From NCBI GenBank assembly GCA_015067705.1, contig SVLW01000005.1, positions 14,666 through 78,665 on the forward strand: 64,000 nt of DNA. Direction: 5' to 3'. The stretch comes from Oscillospiraceae bacterium (GTDB taxonomy: Bacteria > Bacillota > Clostridia > Oscillospirales > QAMX01). The number at the start of each line of letters is the position of its first letter. Position 1 is the first letter of the stretch. Positions 5,378 through 63,027 of the stretch are shown here, piece after piece. Under the pieces are notes generated by a model. That model did not search any database and was not told the DNA's origin. It saw nothing but the letters and a program-made list of their open reading frames with translations. The position numbers and the translations under genes were made by a program.

Positions 5378-6466
5378 TTATGATTCATAGGCTTTCATGA
5401 TGTTTTCATACATCACTTCTTCCGAAAATTCCCGGCGCACCCGCTCCGCCGCAGCGGCGCCCATCCGGGCCCGCAGGGCGGGATCCTCCGAAAGGCGGCA
5501 GAGCCGATCCGCCATGGCGGCGGCATCGCCGAAGGGCACCAGATACCCGCCGTCTGCCTCTGTAGGCACGATCTCGGGATTGCCGCCCACTTTCGTGATG
5601 ACCACGGGAAGGGAGAGAGACATGGCCTCCGTGATGGCAAAGCTCAGTGCCTCGCTGCGGGAGGTATTGATGCTGACGTCTCCGGCGCAGAGAATCGCGT
5701 CGGTATCCCGGCGGAAGCCGGCCTGCAGGAAGAATCCCTCCATGCCGTACCGCTTGATGGTCTCTCTTGCGCTTTCAAATTCGCTGCCCTGTCCGGCGAT
5801 CAGGAAGCGGGCCTCCGGCAGCCGTTTCTGTACCAGTCGCGCCGTTTCCAGCAGCATGTCCGTACCCTTCACCGGTTCATACCGGGTCAGGGTCGTCACC
5901 ACAAAGGCGTCCTCCGGGATCCCGAATTCCGCCCGGATCTCCCGGCGCAGCCGGGCAGGATCCGCTACCCGGTCGAAAGGCACGCCGTTATGGATCACCC
6001 GCAGACGGTCGGGACGGATGCCGTTTTTCGTCAGCTGATCGATCTGTGCCTCACAGACACAGAGCACCGCGTGATTCCGCGGAGAGAACAGTCGATTGAT
6101 CACCCGCCACTTGGCGTCACAGGCAAAGACCAGATGCGCCGTGGTGATCACTTTCGCAGAAAGGCCCATACGCTTTGCCAGAATGGCAATGCAGTTTTCT
6201 CTGGGGTAATGCGCGTGGATCACGGAGATTTCGCGCGTCCTGGAGATCCCGCGCAGTGTCCGCGCGGCCTTCAGATCCAGGATATGCCGCATGGGCATCT
6301 GCAGGACTTCCGCGCCTGCCGCCGCCGCGTCGCCCACCAGCGGGCCTTCTATTCCATAAACCAGTGTGCAGGTATGACCCGCGGCGATTTGCCGCCGGAT
6401 CAGGGTCAGCACATACTTTTCCGTGCCGCCGCTCCCCGCATAATGGATCAGGTGCAGGATATTCAT
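5378..6466 (-). CDS. glycosyltransferase family 4 (GT-B fold)
   Basis: MNILHLIHYAGSGGTEKY N-terminus and a C-terminal E-x7-E-like region (SEALSFAITEAMSLSLPVV). I moved the start to the ATG at 6466 because GGAGGTG lies 7 nt upstream. The ORF track starts at 6490. Confidence 0.8.
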   Translation of the reverse strand: MNILHLIHYAGSGGTEKYVLTLIRRQIAAGHTCTLVYGIEGPLVGDAAAAGAEVLQMPMRHILDLKAARTLRGISRTREISVIHAHYPRENCIAILAKRMGLSAKVITTAHLVFACDAKWRVINRLFSPRNHAVLCVCEAQIDQLTKNGIRPDRLRVIHNGVPFDRVADPARLRREIRAEFGIPEDAFVVTTLTRYEPVKGTDMLLETARLVQKRLPEARFLIAGQGSEFESARETIKRYGMEGFFLQAGFRRDTDAILCAGDVSINTSRSEALSFAITEAMSLSLPVVITKVGGNPEIVPTEADGGYLVPFGDAAAMADRLCRLSEDPALRARMGAAAAERVRREFSEEVMYENIMKAYES

Positions 6467-6637
6467 TCTTCCCACCTCCACATCAGGCATTCAGTATATC
6501 ACATTTCATTCCCCAAGGAAAGCCTGATATTCATAAATTCAAAAAACATGGATGATTTTCCGTCGTTTCACCCCGATTTTTGTCAAACTTAGAAAAACCG
6601 AACACTATCCAGATATATTATTTTGGTTAAATACGTG

Positions 6638-6666
6638 TTGACATCTCATGGGGAAGTGCGTATAAT
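6638..6666 (+). promoter_or_regulatory. sigma-70-type promoter (TTGACA-17 nt-TATAAT) driving the riboswitch transcript
   Basis: TTGACA at 6638-6643, exactly 17 nt of spacer, then TATAAT at 6661-6666. Confidence 0.7.
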
Positions 6667-6677
6667 ATCAAGTAAGA

Positions 6678-6797
6678 TATGACGCTGAGTGCCATTTTGG
6701 CAGCGGGAGAACCATTTTTGGGGTGTATCCGTCCTTTGGACGGTAGGGTACCTTCTGGCCCAAACCCGACAGCTAATCTCGTAAGCGACGAAGGACA
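6678..6797 (+). promoter_or_regulatory. c-di-AMP riboswitch aptamer (ydaO/kimA class)
   Basis: Reads CGCUGAGUGCCAUUUUGGCAGCGGGAGAACCAUUUUUGGGGUGUAUCC..GGUAGGGUACCUUCUGGCCCAAACCCGACAGCUAAUCUCGUAAGCGACGAAGG. As I recall them, this parallels the B. subtilis ydaO leader (..AGCGGGGGACCCA..GGGGUGAAUCC..GGUAGGG..CCCGUCAGCUAACCUCGUAAGCG) and the Thermoanaerobacter crystallised aptamer (..CACCCGACAGCUAAC..). Confidence 0.85.
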
Positions 6798-6836
6798 CAG
6801 TAAACGGATGGATGAAGCGTTTACTGTTGCTTGCAG

Positions 6837-6864
6837 CGTCCGTCTTACTGCGGGCGGTTTTTTT
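6837..6864 (+). terminator. riboswitch expression-platform terminator
   Basis: Stem CGUCCG (6837-6842) pairs with CGGGCG (6851-6856), followed by a U7 tract at 6858-6864. An overlapping alternative hairpin, CTGCGGG (6848-6854) with CCCGCAG (6869-6875), is followed by TTCTCTTTTTTGTTT. Confidence 0.6.
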
Positions 6865-6953
6865 ATGTCCCGCAGGTTCTCTTTTTTGTTTGCACTTCAT
6901 CTTTTCATGATTCTCCCCTTTCTCTTGGTATCGTCAGTTCGATACCGCAAGAA

Positions 6954-6990
6954 ACCGCCGTACCGAAGAATGGAACGGCGGTATTTTTTT
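6954..6990. terminator. bidirectional hairpin terminator (serves ttcA-like gene and any plus-strand read-through)
   Basis: ACCGCCGT (6954-6961) pairs with ACGGCGGT (6975-6982). ATTTTTTT follows on the plus strand and TTTCTTG on the minus strand. Confidence 0.65.
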
Positions 6991-7015
6991 GCACCTTTGG
7001 GGGAGAATCGAGAGT

Positions 7016-7756
7016 TCAGCGCACTTTTTCCCAACCGGACAGGGGCAGGCGCTGCATGGAGCCGAACATCCGCTCCTGGATGCCGGGGGCCTCCCGGTCC
7101 AGATCCCGCAGGAGTTCCTTCACATACTGGCGCTTGGTGTTGCCGTCGGCGGGACAGGGATTTGTCACAATGGGCAGATCCATGCTTCTGGCACAGCCGC
7201 GCACCAGCTTCTCCGGCGTGTAGAGCAGCGGGCGGATCACCGTCACGTCCTTGCGGTCCAGATAGGTCACCGGCATAAAGCAGGAGATGCGGCCCTCATA
7301 GATCTGGGACATCATGAGCGTCTCCACCGCGTCGTCCCGATTGTGGCCCAGGGCGATCACTCGGCAGTTCCGGGCAACGGCGGCATCATGAATGGCGCCC
7401 CGGCGCATCTTGGCACAGAGCGAGCAGGGATTGGACTCTTTTCGCACCTCAAAGATGATTTCATAAAGCTGCGTCTTTACAATCGTATAAGGTACGTCCA
7501 GTTCTTCGCAGAGGCGTTCGATGGCGTCAAAGCGCATGCCGGGGATACCGGGATCGATGGTGATGGCCTCCACTTCATAGGGAATGGGATAAAAACGCCG
7601 CATGGCGGCAAGCGCCTCTAACAGCACCAGAGAATCCTTGCCGCCGCTGACGCCCACGGCGATCCGGTCGCCGGGCTTTATCATATCATAATCTTCACAG
7701 CAGCGCCGCACATGAGAAAGAACCTTTTGAAGCACAGGGACAATCTCCTTTTCCAA
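7016..7756 (-). CDS. TtcA-family tRNA 2-thiocytidine biosynthesis PP-loop ATPase
   Basis: 246 aa. Contains the PP-loop SGGKDS and the cysteine motifs CSLCAKMRRG and NPCPADG. Confidence 0.85.
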   Translation of the reverse strand: MEKEIVPVLQKVLSHVRRCCEDYDMIKPGDRIAVGVSGGKDSLVLLEALAAMRRFYPIPYEVEAITIDPGIPGMRFDAIERLCEELDVPYTIVKTQLYEIIFEVRKESNPCSLCAKMRRGAIHDAAVARNCRVIALGHNRDDAVETLMMSQIYEGRISCFMPVTYLDRKDVTVIRPLLYTPEKLVRGCARSMDLPIVTNPCPADGNTKRQYVKELLRDLDREAPGIQERMFGSMQRLPLSGWEKVR

Positions 7757-9147: not shown

Positions 9148-9825
9148 ATGAAAAAGTTTTATTTTCTGACCGCAGATTACTATCATCCCGACACGGTCCT
9201 GCGCCCCGGTCTCGAGGCGGCATTCGGTACGGAGAACTGCGTCTATGTCAATGATCCCGCCGAAATTCCCTGGGACACGCTTTCGCAGGACGCGGCATTC
9301 CTGTTGATCGCCAAGATGGACGATTATTCCAGCCAGCTGGGTCATCCCCGCTATGAGGAGCTTTTTGCGCCCGAGGCGGACTGGATGCGTCCGGAGTGGG
9401 CCGCGGCGCTGGAGCGCTATGTGTCCGAGGGCGGCGGCTTTATCGCCCTGCATTCCGGTACGCTGTGGCATGAGGATTCCGACATGGCGCGCCTCACCGG
9501 CGGGTATTTCCTCCGTCATCCGCCGCAGTGCAATGTGCGCGTGGTGCCCACTATAGAGCATCCCATCACGGAGGGCGTGGAACCCTTCACCGCCAATGAC
9601 GAGTACTATATGTGCCGTGTCTACGGCGACCATGTAAAGCCTCTGGCGCTGGCCTGGTCTCCGGAGCCCCAGGGCGAGCCCACGGTGGTGGCCGCCTGGT
9701 GCCGGGAAGTGGCGTGGGGCCGCGTGGCCGTCTTAACGCCCGGCCATACCCTGGACGCCATCCTGAATCCCAACATGACCCGTCTTTTGCAGAATGCTGC
9801 CAAATGGGTCACCAAAACCTGCTGA
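9148..9825 (+). CDS. ThuA-domain protein (class I glutamine amidotransferase-like fold)
   Basis: 225 aa. AAGGGAG RBS. Pattern ...GGGFIALHSG...HPITEGV...DEYY...GRV...TPGH is typical of ThuA. Confidence 0.7.
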   Translation: MKKFYFLTADYYHPDTVLRPGLEAAFGTENCVYVNDPAEIPWDTLSQDAAFLLIAKMDDYSSQLGHPRYEELFAPEADWMRPEWAAALERYVSEGGGFIALHSGTLWHEDSDMARLTGGYFLRHPPQCNVRVVPTIEHPITEGVEPFTANDEYYMCRVYGDHVKPLALAWSPEPQGEPTVVAAWCREVAWGRVAVLTPGHTLDAILNPNMTRLLQNAAKWVTKTC

Positions 9826-13544: not shown

Positions 13545-14339
13545 TTACGGATCCTGCCGATAGAGTTCCAGAGCGTTCTTTCTGGTTTCGTCCAGGAATC
13601 GTTTCCACTCGGTGGGATCAATAAAGGGATTAGGCGTCTCGCCCAGATGGGGCAGTTTCTCGGGCGCATGGTTATTCCAGAAGTGATTGCCCATAAAGAC
13701 ATCCACCTTTTCCTCATAGACCTTTTCAATGCTCCGAAGGAAATCATCCCGATAGGACAGGGGCAGACCGTATTCCTCCAGGAAAGCCCTGGTCAGGGAA
13801 TTGATGCCCGCGCCGCCGAAGGTTCCCACGCGGTAGGTCTTGCCTTCCTCCTCCACGTCGAAGAAGAGGGACATGGTGCCCGGCGTATGGCCGGGAGTGG
13901 CAATGCAGTCAATGGTGGTATTGCCGATGGTGAGACGATCTCCGTCCCGGAGCAGTACGTCCGGCTCAAAGGGTTCGATATACTGATAATAGCCCAGTTC
14001 TTTTGCCCAGGAGAGATCCAGCGTGCCATTGGCATACTCCCGATCCGGTGCGCCCAGATAGGTCTTTGCGCCGGTAAGCTCGGCAAGAGCCCGGGTGCCG
14101 CCGCAGTGGTCGTAATGACCATGGGAATGGATAATATGCCGCACATCGTAGGGATCAAAGCCCAGGGCGCGGATGTTCTCGAGAAGCCAGTACACCGTCT
14201 GCGGATAGCCGGTGTCGATCAAAACCAAACCGTCTCCCGTGTCGATCATGTGCGACGAGCCCTCAAAAGTACCTACAAAATATAAATTGCCGATCATGCG
14301 AAACGGCTTTACTTTCTGTTCCCAGTAAGGATATACCAT
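13545..14339 (-). CDS. MBL-fold metallo-hydrolase
   Basis: 264 aa with the HSHGHYDH (HxHxDH) motif. Confidence 0.8.
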   Translation of the reverse strand: MVYPYWEQKVKPFRMIGNLYFVGTFEGSSHMIDTGDGLVLIDTGYPQTVYWLLENIRALGFDPYDVRHIIHSHGHYDHCGGTRALAELTGAKTYLGAPDREYANGTLDLSWAKELGYYQYIEPFEPDVLLRDGDRLTIGNTTIDCIATPGHTPGTMSLFFDVEEEGKTYRVGTFGGAGINSLTRAFLEEYGLPLSYRDDFLRSIEKVYEEKVDVFMGNHFWNNHAPEKLPHLGETPNPFIDPTEWKRFLDETRKNALELYRQDP

Positions 14340-46940: not shown

Positions 46941-47285
46941 ATGATCAAGAAATTAACGGAAATGCCCGTCAGCGGGCATGACAACTGGTGCCGGGGCCGG
47001 GGCCATGCCGACGCCCTGCATCTTCTAACGGCGGAGGAGACCCGTGGCCGCATCCGCGACGCCATGCTGATCACCGTGGAAAAGGGCGGCTTCATCGGCG
47101 ACCATCCCCATGTGGATGACGCGGATCTTTATTACATCATCGAAGGCACTGCCCGTGTGGACGATAACGGCGTCCTGAAAGAGATCACGGCCGGTGAACT
47201 GAGCTATACCCAGGAAGGCGAACATCACAGCATCGAGAACATCGGCGACGGCGAACTGAAGTTCCTGGCGCTGGTTCTGCGCTGA
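46941..47285 (+). CDS. cupin-domain protein (copy 2)
   Basis: MIKKLTEM... parallels MIKRKEEM... of copy 1. Also has IGDHPHVDDADLYYII and GEHHSIEN. Confidence 0.7.
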   Translation: MIKKLTEMPVSGHDNWCRGRGHADALHLLTAEETRGRIRDAMLITVEKGGFIGDHPHVDDADLYYIIEGTARVDDNGVLKEITAGELSYTQEGEHHSIENIGDGELKFLALVLR

Positions 47286-61211: not shown

Positions 61212-61377
61212 GTATGCAGGAAAAGGCTTTCGGGCCGCCGAAGGAGTAACACTCTCAGGTGACAGAGCATTCTGTCGGGACTGTATGCGGATAGTACTCC
61301 GGAGAAGCTGCGTTCACCGCAGTGCCGAAGGTGCAACAGCGTTCACTCGCTGAAATCTCTCAGGCAAAAGGACGGAG
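61212..61377 (+). promoter_or_regulatory. glycine riboswitch, tandem architecture
   Basis: Aptamer 2 (61297-61377) reads CUCCGGAGAAGCUGCG..CCGCAGUGCCGAAGGUGCAACAGCG..CGCUGAAAUCUCUCAGGCAAAAGGACGGAG, which is canonical. Aptamer 1 (61212-61288) reads ..GCCGCCGAAGGAGUAACACUCUCAGG-[hairpin]-GGGAC and is closed by GUAUGCAG paired with CUGUAUGC. Confidence 0.85.
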
Positions 61378-61432
61378 AAACCCATCAGATTGATGCTGCA
61401 GCTTTGCAGTATTTGTTTGATCCCGTGTTTTT

Positions 61433-61506: not shown

Positions 61507-63027
61507 ATGGAAAACTTTTTGAGCAAGGTCGCTGAGATCAACAGCGCCGTCAACAATGTGGTCTGGGGCATTCCCGCGCTGGCGCTTCTGATCGGCACCG
61601 GTATTCTTATGACCATTCTGACGAAGGGCTTCCAGTTCACCCGCTTCGGTCACATGATCCGCGAGACGCTGGGCGGCCTCTTCCGCAAGAAGGACGTCAT
61701 GAAGAGCGACGACCGCAACTCCATTTCCCAGTTCCAGGCACTCTGCACCGCACTGTCCGCCACCATCGGCACCGGTAATATCGCCGGTATCGCCTACGCC
61801 ATCACCATGGGCGGCCCCGGCGCCGTGTTCTGGATGTGGGTGGCCGCCATCTTTGGCATGATGACCAACTACTCCGAAAACGTGCTGGGTATCTTCTTCC
61901 GCCGCCGCAACAAGGACGGCGAGTGGAGCGGCGGCGCCATGTACTATCTCCGCGACGGCCTTGGCAGCAAAAAGGGCTGTAAGCAGATCGGCGCGGTGCT
62001 GGCGGTACTCTTCTCCGTTTTTGCAATCGTTGCTTCCTTCGGTATCGGCAATATGGGTCAGGTGGCCTCCATCCGTGAGAGCATTGCCGGCCTGGGCTCC
62101 TTCACCGGCAACGCCACCATTGACAGCCTCGTGGTGGGTGCAGTGGTCATGATTGCCGTGGCGCTGGTGGTTCTGGGCGGTCTGCATCGTATCGCCAAGG
62201 CAAACGAAAAGATCGTGCCCTTTATGTCCGTGTTCTACATCATCGGCGCCCTGATCATTGTCTTTATGCACGTGGATCAGGTGGGCCCCGCTTTCCGCTC
62301 CATTTTTGTGGGCGCCTTCAACATGAAGGCCGTGGCCGGCGGCGTCGGCGGCGCCGTCATTATGCAGGCCATCACCTGGGGCTTCAAGCGCGGCGTGTTC
62401 TCCAACGAAGCCGGTCTCGGTTCCTCCGTTATGGTGCACTCCAATTCAAACGTCAAGGAGCCGGTCACCCAGGGTCTCTGGGGTATCTTTGAGGTGTTTG
62501 TGGACACCATCATCGTCTGCACCCTGACTGCACTCGTCATTCTCACCACCGGCATCGTGGATCTGGAGACCGGCGCATCCCTCTCCGGCGCCACCAAGCT
62601 GGGTCTTGCCACCGAGGCATTCACCAATTCCTTTGGCACCTTCGGCGGTATCTTCATCGCCATCGCCATCACCCTCTTCGCCTTCTCCACCGTCCTTGGC
62701 TGGAGCCATTACGGCAGCAAGGCCTGGGAGTATCTCTTCGGCACCAAGTCCATCGTGGTGTACCGTGTGGTCTTTATCATCGTGGTTCTGGTCGGTTCTG
62801 TCCTGAGCGCAGACCTGGTCATCGACCTGTCCGATACCTTTAACGGTCTCATGGCCATCCCGAACCTGATCGGCGTCATCACCATGTCCGGTACGGTTCT
62901 CGCCATCACGAAGAACTACTCCGAACGGAAACTCGGCAAAACCCCGAAGAACGTAAAGCCCATGCTCTCCGCCTTCGAAGATATCCAGGCAGAACAGGAA
63001 GCTGCCATCAAGGCTGAGGAAAAGTAA
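61507..63027 (+). CDS. alanine/glycine:cation symporter (AGCS family)
   Basis: 506 aa. TIGTGNIAGIAYAITMGGPGAVFWMWV and SNEAGLGSS blocks. Confidence 0.9.
   Translation: MENFLSKVAEINSAVNNVVWGIPALALLIGTGILMTILTKGFQFTRFGHMIRETLGGLFRKKDVMKSDDRNSISQFQALCTALSATIGTGNIAGIAYAITMGGPGAVFWMWVAAIFGMMTNYSENVLGIFFRRRNKDGEWSGGAMYYLRDGLGSKKGCKQIGAVLAVLFSVFAIVASFGIGNMGQVASIRESIAGLGSFTGNATIDSLVVGAVVMIAVALVVLGGLHRIAKANEKIVPFMSVFYIIGALIIVFMHVDQVGPAFRSIFVGAFNMKAVAGGVGGAVIMQAITWGFKRGVFSNEAGLGSSVMVHSNSNVKEPVTQGLWGIFEVFVDTIIVCTLTALVILTTGIVDLETGASLSGATKLGLATEAFTNSFGTFGGIFIAIAITLFAFSTVLGWSHYGSKAWEYLFGTKSIVVYRVVFIIVVLVGSVLSADLVIDLSDTFNGLMAIPNLIGVITMSGTVLAITKNYSERKLGKTPKNVKPMLSAFEDIQAEQEAAIKAEEK

Follow-up and report, generated by a model that had tools for sequence, protein, structure and literature searches.

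A predicted sensor RNA for the bacterial second messenger c-di-AMP does not lie in front of a gene but at the head of its own conserved, putative non-coding RNA of approximately 320 nucleotides. It appears that the signal controls whether an ultra-conserved regulatory RNA tail is made, although this reading is inferred from sequence alone and is held with only moderate confidence. Such an arrangement is known for vitamin B12 sensors, while literature searches for a c-di-AMP riboswitch-associated sRNA found no report of one. The element lies in a 64,000-nucleotide stretch (the window) of an Oscillospiraceae bacterium (assembly GCA_015067705.1, contig SVLW01000005.1, positions 14,666 to 78,665 of the forward strand), and its parts are as follows, in window coordinates.

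6618-6637 (+), an A/T-rich element just upstream of the -35 hexamer (consensus TTTTTGGTTAAAAAGTTG in relatives), which may be an UP element or an operator.
6638-6666 (+), a sigma-70-type promoter, TTGACA-17-TATAAT, with an inferred transcription start near 6673.
6673-6802 (+), the c-di-AMP (ydaO-class) aptamer, with the P1 5′ strand CGCU at 6683-6686 and the P1 3′ strand AGCG at 6784-6787.
6681-6687 (+), the 5′ half of the predicted antiterminator (GACGCUG), overlapping the P1 5′ strand and pairing with 6834-6840.
6797-6827 (+), hairpin H1, a 10-bp stem (6797-6806 / 6818-6827) with a variable 11-nt loop.
6834-6840 (+), the 3′ half of the predicted antiterminator (CAGCGUC), which mimics the P1 3′ strand and overlaps the T1 5′ arm.
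6837-6864 (+), terminator T1, the predicted riboswitch-controlled terminator, with stem CGUCCGU/GCGGGCG, loop CUUACU and then U7.
6848-6875 (+), hairpin H2 (CUGCGGG / CCCGCAG), an alternative to T1 that encloses the U-tract and can form only after read-through.
6884-6930 (+), the ultra-conserved, pyrimidine-rich core of the 3′ domain, predicted to be mostly single-stranded, containing CAU-GAUU-CUCCCC (6906-6918), the complement of AUG plus a Shine–Dalgarno (SD) site.
6927-6946 (+), hairpin H3 (GGUAUCG / CGAUACC) with a variable hexaloop.
6954-6990 (+), terminator T2, a hairpin plus U7 and the predicted end of the RNA gene, likely bidirectional and also serving the convergent gene.

The first-pass annotation had described an orphan ydaO-class riboswitch with its own promoter, a terminator and no downstream gene, and this observation was confirmed. 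The covariance-model search that had been set as its test matched RF00379 at 94 bits against a gathering score of 38 (E 6.9e-21), over model positions 1-134 of 134. The promoter matches the consensus at 12 of 12 positions. A pattern scan identified T1 as a stem at 6837-6856 followed by T7 at 6858-6864, for which RNAfold gives -9.2 kcal/mol. The same simple scan missed T2 because of an internal A.A mismatch; this terminator comprises a hairpin at 6954-6982 plus TATTTTTTT to 6990, at -16.3 kcal/mol. The ORFs that exist before T2 have no SD and their frames are not conserved. Thus, the element is a member of the c-di-AMP riboswitch class by its aptamer but not by its genomic role, as it does not sit in the 5′ UTR of a protein-coding gene that it regulates in cis; the gene beyond T2 is variable and on the opposite strand.

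The same unit, in the same orientation, occurs in seven species-level lineages of an uncultured gut Clostridia clade. It lies next to, and is always divergent from, a glycosyltransferase operon (GT4-DUF4330-Wzy_C) in the orthologous loci labelled L005, L006/7, L009/10/11, L013, L019, L021, L023 and L025. Orthologous aptamers score 73-101 bits in one summary of the searches and 82-101 bits in another. One of these orthologs (L019) came from an exact-motif scan of metagenome contigs, which also returned a chance hit inside an ORF (L020); the same scan of viral contigs gave only a chance hit inside a phage ORF (L027). A scan of genome contigs with TtcA returned only relatives that are about 50% identical and lack the riboswitch. 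TtcA relatives at about 65% identity (L015, L017, L018) and the next-closest GT (40%, L026) have lost synteny and have no RF00379 hit, and the unit could not be traced outside the clade.

The stretch between T1 and T2 is the best-conserved part of the locus, a point absent from the first-pass annotation. Within the core, 45 of 47 columns are invariant across the seven lineages. Invariant columns make up 96% of the core, 83% of T1, 76% of T2 and 71% of the aptamer, compared with 76% at codon positions 1+2 of the flanking TtcA gene, 6% at its 4-fold degenerate sites and 5% immediately after T2. In the alignment of the seven lineages, both promoter hexamers are invariant while the spacer varies, and the A/T-rich element upstream is conserved in six of the seven. 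The core is single-copy in the sequences examined. A low-threshold Rfam scan of 6780-7010 (E up to 10) found no known family in the 3′ domain, the best hit being the ylbH leader on the minus strand at 19.8 bits against a gathering score of 50.

These comparisons bear on the three readings offered by the first-pass annotation, which were partly supported. Its first reading, a stand-alone or trans-acting riboswitch RNA, is supported but requires modification, as the element is not just a terminated aptamer of the SreA type; it has an ultra-conserved 3′ domain between two terminators, which is closer to EutX/Rli55. Its second reading, ligand-controlled antisense RNA or transcriptional interference against the convergent ttcA-like gene, is not supported as the conserved function. 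In the window, L013 and L025 the unit is directly convergent on TtcA. However, a strong conserved terminator ends the unit, conservation collapses right after it, and in four of the seven lineages a different gene lies beyond T2: APH, two flavodoxins, or MBOAT plus an unknown gene. Its third reading, a remnant after gene loss, is rejected, as the unit is retained in seven lineages and its non-aptamer part is under stronger constraint than codon positions 1+2 of the flanking gene. Any abundant aptamer RNA binds some ligand, but neither a remnant nor a c-di-AMP sponge explains 96% invariance of the 47 nucleotides downstream of T1 when neutral sites are saturated at 6% invariant. Antisense action, decay and a mere sponge are all regarded as very unlikely.

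A further possibility is that the riboswitch controls a small hydrophobic peptide, such as that of the ORF at 6812-6910 (MKRLLLLAASVLLRAVFLCPAGSLFCLHFIFS), which resembles a type I toxin or signal peptide. The ATG at 6812 is invariant, a hydrophobic N-terminus MKRLLLL(A/S)ASVL is retained in six of seven lineages, and one gene caller annotated an ORF here in L010. Nonetheless, no SD precedes this ATG, which lies in the loop of H1, and the ORF runs through T1. Indels that are not multiples of three shift the frame, such that the product is 32 amino acids in the window and L013, 64 in L009 and at least 93 in L006, with L023 differing again. The invariant core shows no third-codon-position variation, and there is no Pfam match. 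The plus-strand ORFs at 6866 and 6907 were rejected on the same grounds. A minus-strand ORF of 84-94 amino acids stays open in all lineages, but its frame shifts between them and it is antisense to the aptamer. A conserved peptide on either strand is therefore considered very unlikely.

The predicted expression platform is a terminator that is mutually exclusive with an aptamer helix. Folding of nascent transcripts pairs 6681-6687 with the 5′ arm of T1 in all seven lineages, in competition with P1. The antiterminator duplex is at -12.6 kcal/mol against -5.5 for P1, and the antiterminator and terminator folds are isoenergetic at -61.0 and -61.3. The antiterminator, T1 and the core are invariant, and so their pairings have no covariation support. 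The T1 stem is 100% paired, and the indels in L013 and L023 fall only in its loop. Once T1 has been read through, H2 is at -12.9 kcal/mol against -9.2 for T1; it was chosen by RNAalifold, and one-sided changes keep its pairing in L025 and in most of L023. H1 carries three pairs with compensatory double changes, 98.6% of its cells are paired, and only 2 of 500 shuffles reach the observed covariation. H3 is 100% paired, with an A-to-G change that keeps a G.U pair, and T2 is 98% paired.

Three other structures were rejected. Pairing of the H1 loop with the T1 arm (6806-6814 with 6837-6845) was excluded because the loop positions vary without compensation. A terminator variant, T1b (6828-6836 with 6848-6856), is broken at 6833 in four of seven lineages. 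An extended H1 (6781-6787 with 6828-6834) leaves T1 intact and has a mismatch in three lineages.

The current proposal is that the aptamer is the 5′ sensor domain of a stand-alone non-coding RNA gene (about 6673-6990), that is, a riboswitch-gated sRNA. At high c-di-AMP, the ligand would lock P1 and leave CAGCGUCCGU free to form T1, so that transcription stops near 6864 and yields an RNA of ~190 nucleotides. At low c-di-AMP, the P1 5′ strand would pair instead with CAGCGUC, T1 could not form, and the polymerase would read through to T2, producing an RNA of ~318 nucleotides that carries the 3′ domain. No promoter-like site lies between T1 and the core, so the 3′ domain can only be made by read-through. 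In this view, the core, which carries the complement of a start codon and of an SD sequence at natural spacing, most likely base-pairs with translation-initiation regions of mRNAs encoded elsewhere and represses them. The analysis establishes the aptamer's identity, the promoter and both terminators, the conservation of the unit in seven lineages with extreme constraint on the 3′ domain, the absence of a conserved ORF, independence from the gene beyond T2, and a conserved, isoenergetic alternative between antiterminator and terminator as a prediction. Transcription, c-di-AMP binding, the ligand dependence of T1 and of the two isoforms, action in trans, repression of translation and the targets are inferred.

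The search for targets returned nothing specific or conserved. An RNAduplex scan covered all candidate start sites in the 64-kb window, the start sites of orthologous ThuA, GT, DUF4330, Wzy_C, TtcA, Rce1 and OAD were compared within about 10 kb of each ortholog, and the core's complement was searched by blastn-short against all the sequence collected. All initiation regions score similarly because the core is a generic anti-SD. The top hits in the window (an MBL-fold protein at 14339, a cupin at 46941 and ThuA at 9148) have no evident link to c-di-AMP biology. The predicted probability that the putative seed is unpaired is 0.4-0.7, depending on the state of the aptamer. In the unliganded full-length RNA, the state in which it is predicted to be made, the CUCCC segment is predicted to be largely masked by the aptamer's GGGAGAA (probability unpaired 0.13), which complicates a simple model in which the RNA is active once made. 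The invariant run is also longer than a typical sRNA seed, hinting at further constraints such as a protein partner or intramolecular pairing.

It is possible, though doubtful, that the core exists mainly to pair with the aptamer's own invariant purine-rich cores. The full-length RNA would then toggle between a "zipped" unliganded fold in which the core is hidden and a c-di-AMP-bound fold in which it is exposed; conversely, the 3′ domain could act as an anti-aptamer that resets ligand binding. In either case, c-di-AMP would act post-transcriptionally on the RNA's activity, in addition to or instead of acting at T1. RNAalifold pairs GGGAGAA 6705-6711 with UUCUCCC 6911-6917, GGGGUG 6720-6725 with CAUCUU 6898-6903, and GUAAGCG 6781-6787 with UGUUUGC 6887-6893. 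The duplex is at -32.6 kcal/mol against -24.5 ± 2.95 for dinucleotide shuffles, with 6 of 500 shuffles as good. In addition, 97.6% of cells are paired against 55-70% in slid controls, eight one-sided changes keep pairing, and the probability that 6908-6917 is unpaired rises from 0.13 to 0.67 when the aptamer is sequestered. Such masking would explain why the core is as invariant as the ligand-binding core it pairs with. However, there is no two-sided covariation, and a purine-rich aptamer paired with a pyrimidine-rich tail gives a high chance background, over which the excess is modest (z about -2.7). About half of the invariant core (6894-6897, 6904-6907, 6918-6926) is not in these helices, and the logic conflicts with T1, as the ligand would both prevent synthesis of the tail and unmask it. 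An unlikely but not excluded extension is that release of the anti-SD/anti-AUG core upon c-di-AMP binding is layered on transcriptional gating at T1. A second messenger would then control an sRNA's activity allosterically after transcription, in a two-input RNA device with no described natural precedent.

The closest known systems are EutX of Enterococcus faecalis and Rli55 of Listeria monocytogenes, the AdoCbl-riboswitch-containing sRNAs (PMC8237595, PMC7266159). These are stand-alone RNA genes with their own promoter, a 5′ aptamer, a ligand-controlled terminator that decides whether a conserved 3′ effector domain is transcribed, a terminal terminator and no ORF, with the full-length RNA made only when ligand is low. 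The present element has this architecture, with ligand control of T1 being predicted, but its ligand class is a second messenger rather than a cofactor, and its 3′ domain is a pyrimidine-rich anti-SD/anti-AUG tract rather than a dual-hexaloop ANTAR decoy. There is no linked two-component system and no sequence or Rfam relationship, so it would work like these RNAs without being homologous to them. By analogy, the pyrimidine-rich tract, H3 and T2 could form a binding platform for an RNA-binding protein that riboswitch-controlled read-through would titrate, and the conserved, mostly single-stranded core suits a sequence-specific protein site as well as a seed. This reading is considered unlikely. 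Only H3 and T2 are present, their loops vary in sequence and length (6 or 7 nt), there are no repeated GGA or other known protein-binding motifs, no ANTAR gene lies nearby and no RNA-binding regulator gene is conserved next to the unit.

Canonical c-di-AMP (ydaO/kimA, RF00379) riboswitches share the full-length aptamer and a terminator-type platform that competes with P1, giving OFF-switch logic, which is predicted here. They sit in the 5′ UTRs of K+ or osmolyte transporter and cell-wall genes (PMC7266159), whereas this one is followed by a conserved non-coding domain and a second terminator. SreA/SreB, the Listeria SAM riboswitches acting in trans, and the SAM-II-derived RZ of Sinorhizobium are likewise riboswitch-derived RNAs that act, or are proposed to act, on distal mRNAs (PMC7266159, PMC9373788). 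Those are terminated products of riboswitches that still regulate a downstream gene in cis, and the acting part is the riboswitch itself; here there is no cis gene and the presumed acting part lies beyond the regulated terminator. The C-rich anti-SD sRNAs of Firmicutes (RoxS/RsaE and the streptococcal csRNAs) also carry an unpaired C-rich motif complementary to SD sequences, and for csRNAs a complement to the AUG, and end in an intrinsic terminator. They are controlled by protein regulators (ResD/Rex, CiaR) rather than a fused riboswitch, and the Rfam scan described above gave no hit to any of these families.

c-di-AMP signalling acts through protein receptors and through cis-acting riboswitches on transporter and cell-wall genes. 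A c-di-AMP-gated trans-acting RNA would add a post-transcriptional branch to that regulon, and c-di-AMP would be only the second ligand class, after AdoCbl, for which a riboswitch gates a separate effector RNA domain. The finding indicates that "orphan" riboswitches without a cargo gene can be sensors of sRNA genes rather than annotation gaps or decay products, to the extent that the proposed model holds. The element is compact, with promoter, aptamer, antiterminator/terminator and putative effector tail fitting in about 350 nucleotides, and it occurs in a clade where almost nothing is known about RNA regulation. The model predicts two 3′ ends in a ligand-dependent ratio.

Two details of the first-pass annotation require correction. 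The ATG frame at 6866 had been described as the only one, but an ATG at 6812 opens a 32-amino-acid ORF and there is another at 6907. The ttcA-like coding sequence had been placed at 7016-7756, a 246-amino-acid ORF that gave no match in an exact look-up; it is most likely 7016-7735, encoding 239 amino acids from a GTG start, as in all homologs.

An Rfam scan of the whole window gives two hits above threshold. One of these is the c-di-AMP riboswitch family RF00379, which matches at 94 bits against a gathering score of 38, with an E-value of 6.9e-21 and coverage of model positions 1-134 of 134. The elements of the locus and its flanking genes are as follows:

5378-6466, minus strand: GT4 glycosyltransferase (GT), the first gene of a GT-DUF4330-Wzy_C operon
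6638-6666: TTGACA-17-TATAAT promoter with 12 of 12 matches
6673-6802, plus strand: RF00379 c-di-AMP aptamer
6837-6856: terminator-like hairpin followed by T7 (terminator T1)
6954-6990: second, stronger hairpin with a U7 tail, -16.3 kcal/mol (terminator T2)
7016-7735, minus strand: PP-loop TtcA-like protein

The first-pass annotation had described a c-di-AMP riboswitch with its own promoter and terminator but no downstream gene, convergent on a ttcA-like gene, and this observation is confirmed. It is accurate apart from small details, as more than one ATG is present and the TtcA start differs. The longest ORF for the TtcA-like gene, 7016-7756, begins at a TTG at 7756, whereas all close homologs are 239 amino acids long, which places the real start at the GTG at 7735 (ATG in relatives). 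Elsewhere in the window, at 61289-61385 on the plus strand, a glycine riboswitch aptamer (RF00504, 61 bits) lies about 120 nt upstream of a 506-amino acid ORF (61507-63027) that has a good Shine–Dalgarno (SD) sequence. This is an ordinary cis arrangement. The sequence just upstream of it (about 61215-61285) looks like a possible first tandem aptamer, but it did not reach threshold.

TtcA homologs of 78-99% identity led to contigs from at least seven distinct lineages, with a pairwise TtcA identity of 77-88%. All of these share the synteny OAD-ThuA-Rce1-like-TtcA-[variable]-GT-DUF4330-Wzy_C. Every contig that spans the gap carries an RF00379 aptamer of 73-101 bits at the same place and in the same orientation, and the aptamer is always divergent from GT. 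The gene on its 3′ side is TtcA in the window and in the related contigs L013 and L025. In other relatives, it is an APH kinase (L006), a flavodoxin (L009), an FMN reductase-type flavodoxin (L021), or MBOAT plus an unknown gene (L023). The short spacer between T2 and the TtcA stop is a hotspot for gene insertion or turnover, and otherwise syntenic lineages carry four different cargoes there: an APH kinase, two unrelated flavodoxin-type genes, and MBOAT plus an unknown 332-amino acid protein (L006 5874-6824, L009 5835-6311, L021 3310-3849 and L023 4159-6666). On the other side of the unit, the spacer between the riboswitch promoter and the GT start is about 700 nt in the L006/L007 lineage (L006 7224-7924), against about 170-300 nt elsewhere, and contains no convincing ORF, only arginine-rich spurious frames. 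At about 65% TtcA identity, or 40% GT identity, synteny is lost and no aptamer is present. The unit is therefore a stable feature of one genus-level clade of uncultured Clostridia, with the few named homologs being annotated as Clostridiales, Oscillospiraceae or Ruminococcaceae bacteria.

In the seven-lineage alignment, conservation does not end with the aptamer or with T1. It continues to the last T of T2 and then collapses.

Table. Invariant columns by region in the seven-lineage alignment.
Upstream of the promoter: 21%
Aptamer: 71%
Linker plus hairpin H1: 62%
T1: 83%
Core 6884-6930: 96% (45 of 47)
Hairpin H3: 83%
T2: 76%
After T2: 5%

In the same lineages, the 4-fold degenerate sites of TtcA are invariant at 6% (5 of 78) and codon positions 1+2 at 76%. 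The segment that the first-pass annotation treated as empty is therefore the most constrained sequence in the locus. This rules out a decaying remnant, one of the readings initially proposed. A purely cis-antisense role against a neighbour that keeps changing, another of those readings, also becomes untenable.

ORFs exist on both strands, namely a 32-amino acid frame from 6812, frames from 6866 and 6907, and a minus-strand ORF of 84-94 amino acids. None of these has an SD, and the ATG at 6812 sits in a hairpin loop. Indels that are not multiples of three (TGTCCCGC against TGT-CCGC; GCG-AC against GCGTAA; loop insertions in L013 and L023) put different lineages in different frames, so that the products have different sequences and lengths. 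The invariant core shows no third-position variation, and a Pfam search found nothing. The unit is therefore not considered to be protein-coding.

The structural elements of the RNA include the following:

6797-6806 / 6818-6827: hairpin H1, with three pairs that carry compensatory double changes
6848-6854 / 6869-6875: hairpin H2, -12.9 kcal/mol, which can replace T1 (-9.2 kcal/mol) after read-through

T1, H3 and T2 are invariant or change only to G.U and are 98-100% paired, with indels falling in their loops. An alternative, longer terminator (T1b) was rejected, as it is broken in 4 of 7 lineages.

The nascent transcript was folded up to the T1 loop for each of the seven lineages. Each time, the 5′ arm of T1 paired with the 5′ strand of aptamer helix P1, through the following predicted antiterminator:

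6681-6687: GACGCUG, pairing with
6834-6840: CAGCGUC

The T1 flank (CAGCGUC) mimics the P1 3′ strand (AAGCGAC). The antiterminator duplex is -12.6 kcal/mol, against -5.5 for bare P1, while folds with the antiterminator or with T1 enforced are isoenergetic at -61.0 and -61.3 kcal/mol, respectively. This is the standard strand-competition design of an OFF riboswitch, in which the ligand-stabilised P1 would release the T1 arm and transcription would terminate, whereas without ligand the antiterminator would form and the polymerase would read through. As all the nucleotides involved are invariant, this remains a prediction without covariation support. No promoter-like site lies between T1 and the core, so the 3′ domain can be made only by read-through.

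The core is pyrimidine-rich (UUUGCACUUCAUCUUUUCAUGAUUCUCCCCUUUCUCUUGG). It contains CAU-GAUU-CUCCCC, the exact complement of GGGGAG-AAUC-AUG, which is an SD, a spacer and a start codon. It has no relative in Rfam and is single-copy in all of the sequence examined. A weak, sub-threshold match to the ylbH leader (RF00516) lies on the minus strand at 6905-6990, at 19.8 bits against a gathering score of 50 (E 0.027 for a 231-nt search), and was treated as chance. The minus strand here also carries a strong SD-like AAAGGGGAG followed by ATGAAAAGATGA, a 3-codon ORF, which is simply the mirror image of the anti-SD/anti-AUG core. Within the 64 kb of the genome examined for putative targets, the best-scoring real start sites are strong SDs, those of ThuA at 9148, an MBL-fold gene at 14339 and a cupin at 46941. 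However, the complementarity is generic and is not specifically conserved at any syntenic neighbour. On the plus strand at 7000-7009, GGGGAGAATC is an exact 10-nt complement of the core (GAUUCUCCCC). This site lies 10 nt downstream of T2 in the window and L005 lineage only, and is probably chance (short-query nucleotide search, E 8.9), although it could fold back on the core if T2 were read through.

The core also has a second, non-exclusive property. RNAalifold pairs three invariant pieces of it with the aptamer's own invariant purine-rich strands, GGGAGAA, GGGGUG and GUAAGCG. The duplex is stronger than in 494 of 500 dinucleotide shuffles, and 97.6% of cells are paired, against 55-70% in slid controls, but there are no two-sided changes. 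Sequestering the aptamer raises the predicted unpaired probability of UGAUUCUCCC from 0.13 to 0.67. This could mean that the ligand also controls exposure of the seed, which is the main rival explanation and would be the more novel one. It could equally be a by-product of composition.

Trans-acting riboswitch RNAs are described as rare, the examples being SreA (SAM) and EutX/Rli55 (AdoCbl) (PMC7266159). EutX and Rli55 have exactly this layout: a 5′ aptamer, and a full-length RNA made only without ligand, with a functional 3′ domain (PMC8237595). Known ydaO riboswitches precede K+ and amino-acid transporter, cell-wall and osmotic-stress genes (PMC7266159). Full-text literature searches found no c-di-AMP riboswitch fused to an sRNA, although the literature covered was incomplete and this is not proof of absence. 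By its aptamer, the element is a member of RF00379, but by role it does not lie in the 5′ UTR of a regulated ORF. In its predicted working it resembles EutX/Rli55 but is not homologous to them and lacks their ANTAR-binding motif. The layout itself is already described for AdoCbl, and what differs here is the c-di-AMP class of the aptamer and the nature of the 3′ domain.

The initial interpretation is partly supported. The proposal of a stand-alone or trans-acting riboswitch RNA is right in spirit, antisense action on the convergent gene is not supported as the conserved function, and a remnant left after gene loss is rejected. The element is read as a conserved, self-contained non-coding RNA gene, predicted to be gated by a c-di-AMP riboswitch. 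It is considered very likely that it is a functional stand-alone ncRNA with a selected 3′ effector domain. The specific mechanism, whereby low c-di-AMP causes read-through and the anti-SD/anti-AUG core then represses translation in trans, is held to be about as likely as not. The aptamer match, the conservation of the unit and the absence of a conserved ORF come directly from the sequence analysis, whereas ligand binding and response, action in trans and translational repression are inferred.

At the very end of one SPAdes contig from a relative (L011 6749-6790), a second, same-strand partial copy of the 3′-domain core (GGGGAGAATCATGAAAAGATGAAGTGCAAACAAAAA on the plus strand of the locus) is fused directly to the aptamer at GGGCAACGGGAG and replaces the promoter and the P1 5′ strand. 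Given its position, this is most likely an assembly chimera, although a real rearrangement is not excluded. In a more distant relative (L017 4569-4773, minus strand), a cobalamin riboswitch (RF00174, 76 bits) lies upstream of a 900-amino acid DUF4430/SLH surface protein, which is an ordinary B12-related context unrelated to the c-di-AMP element.
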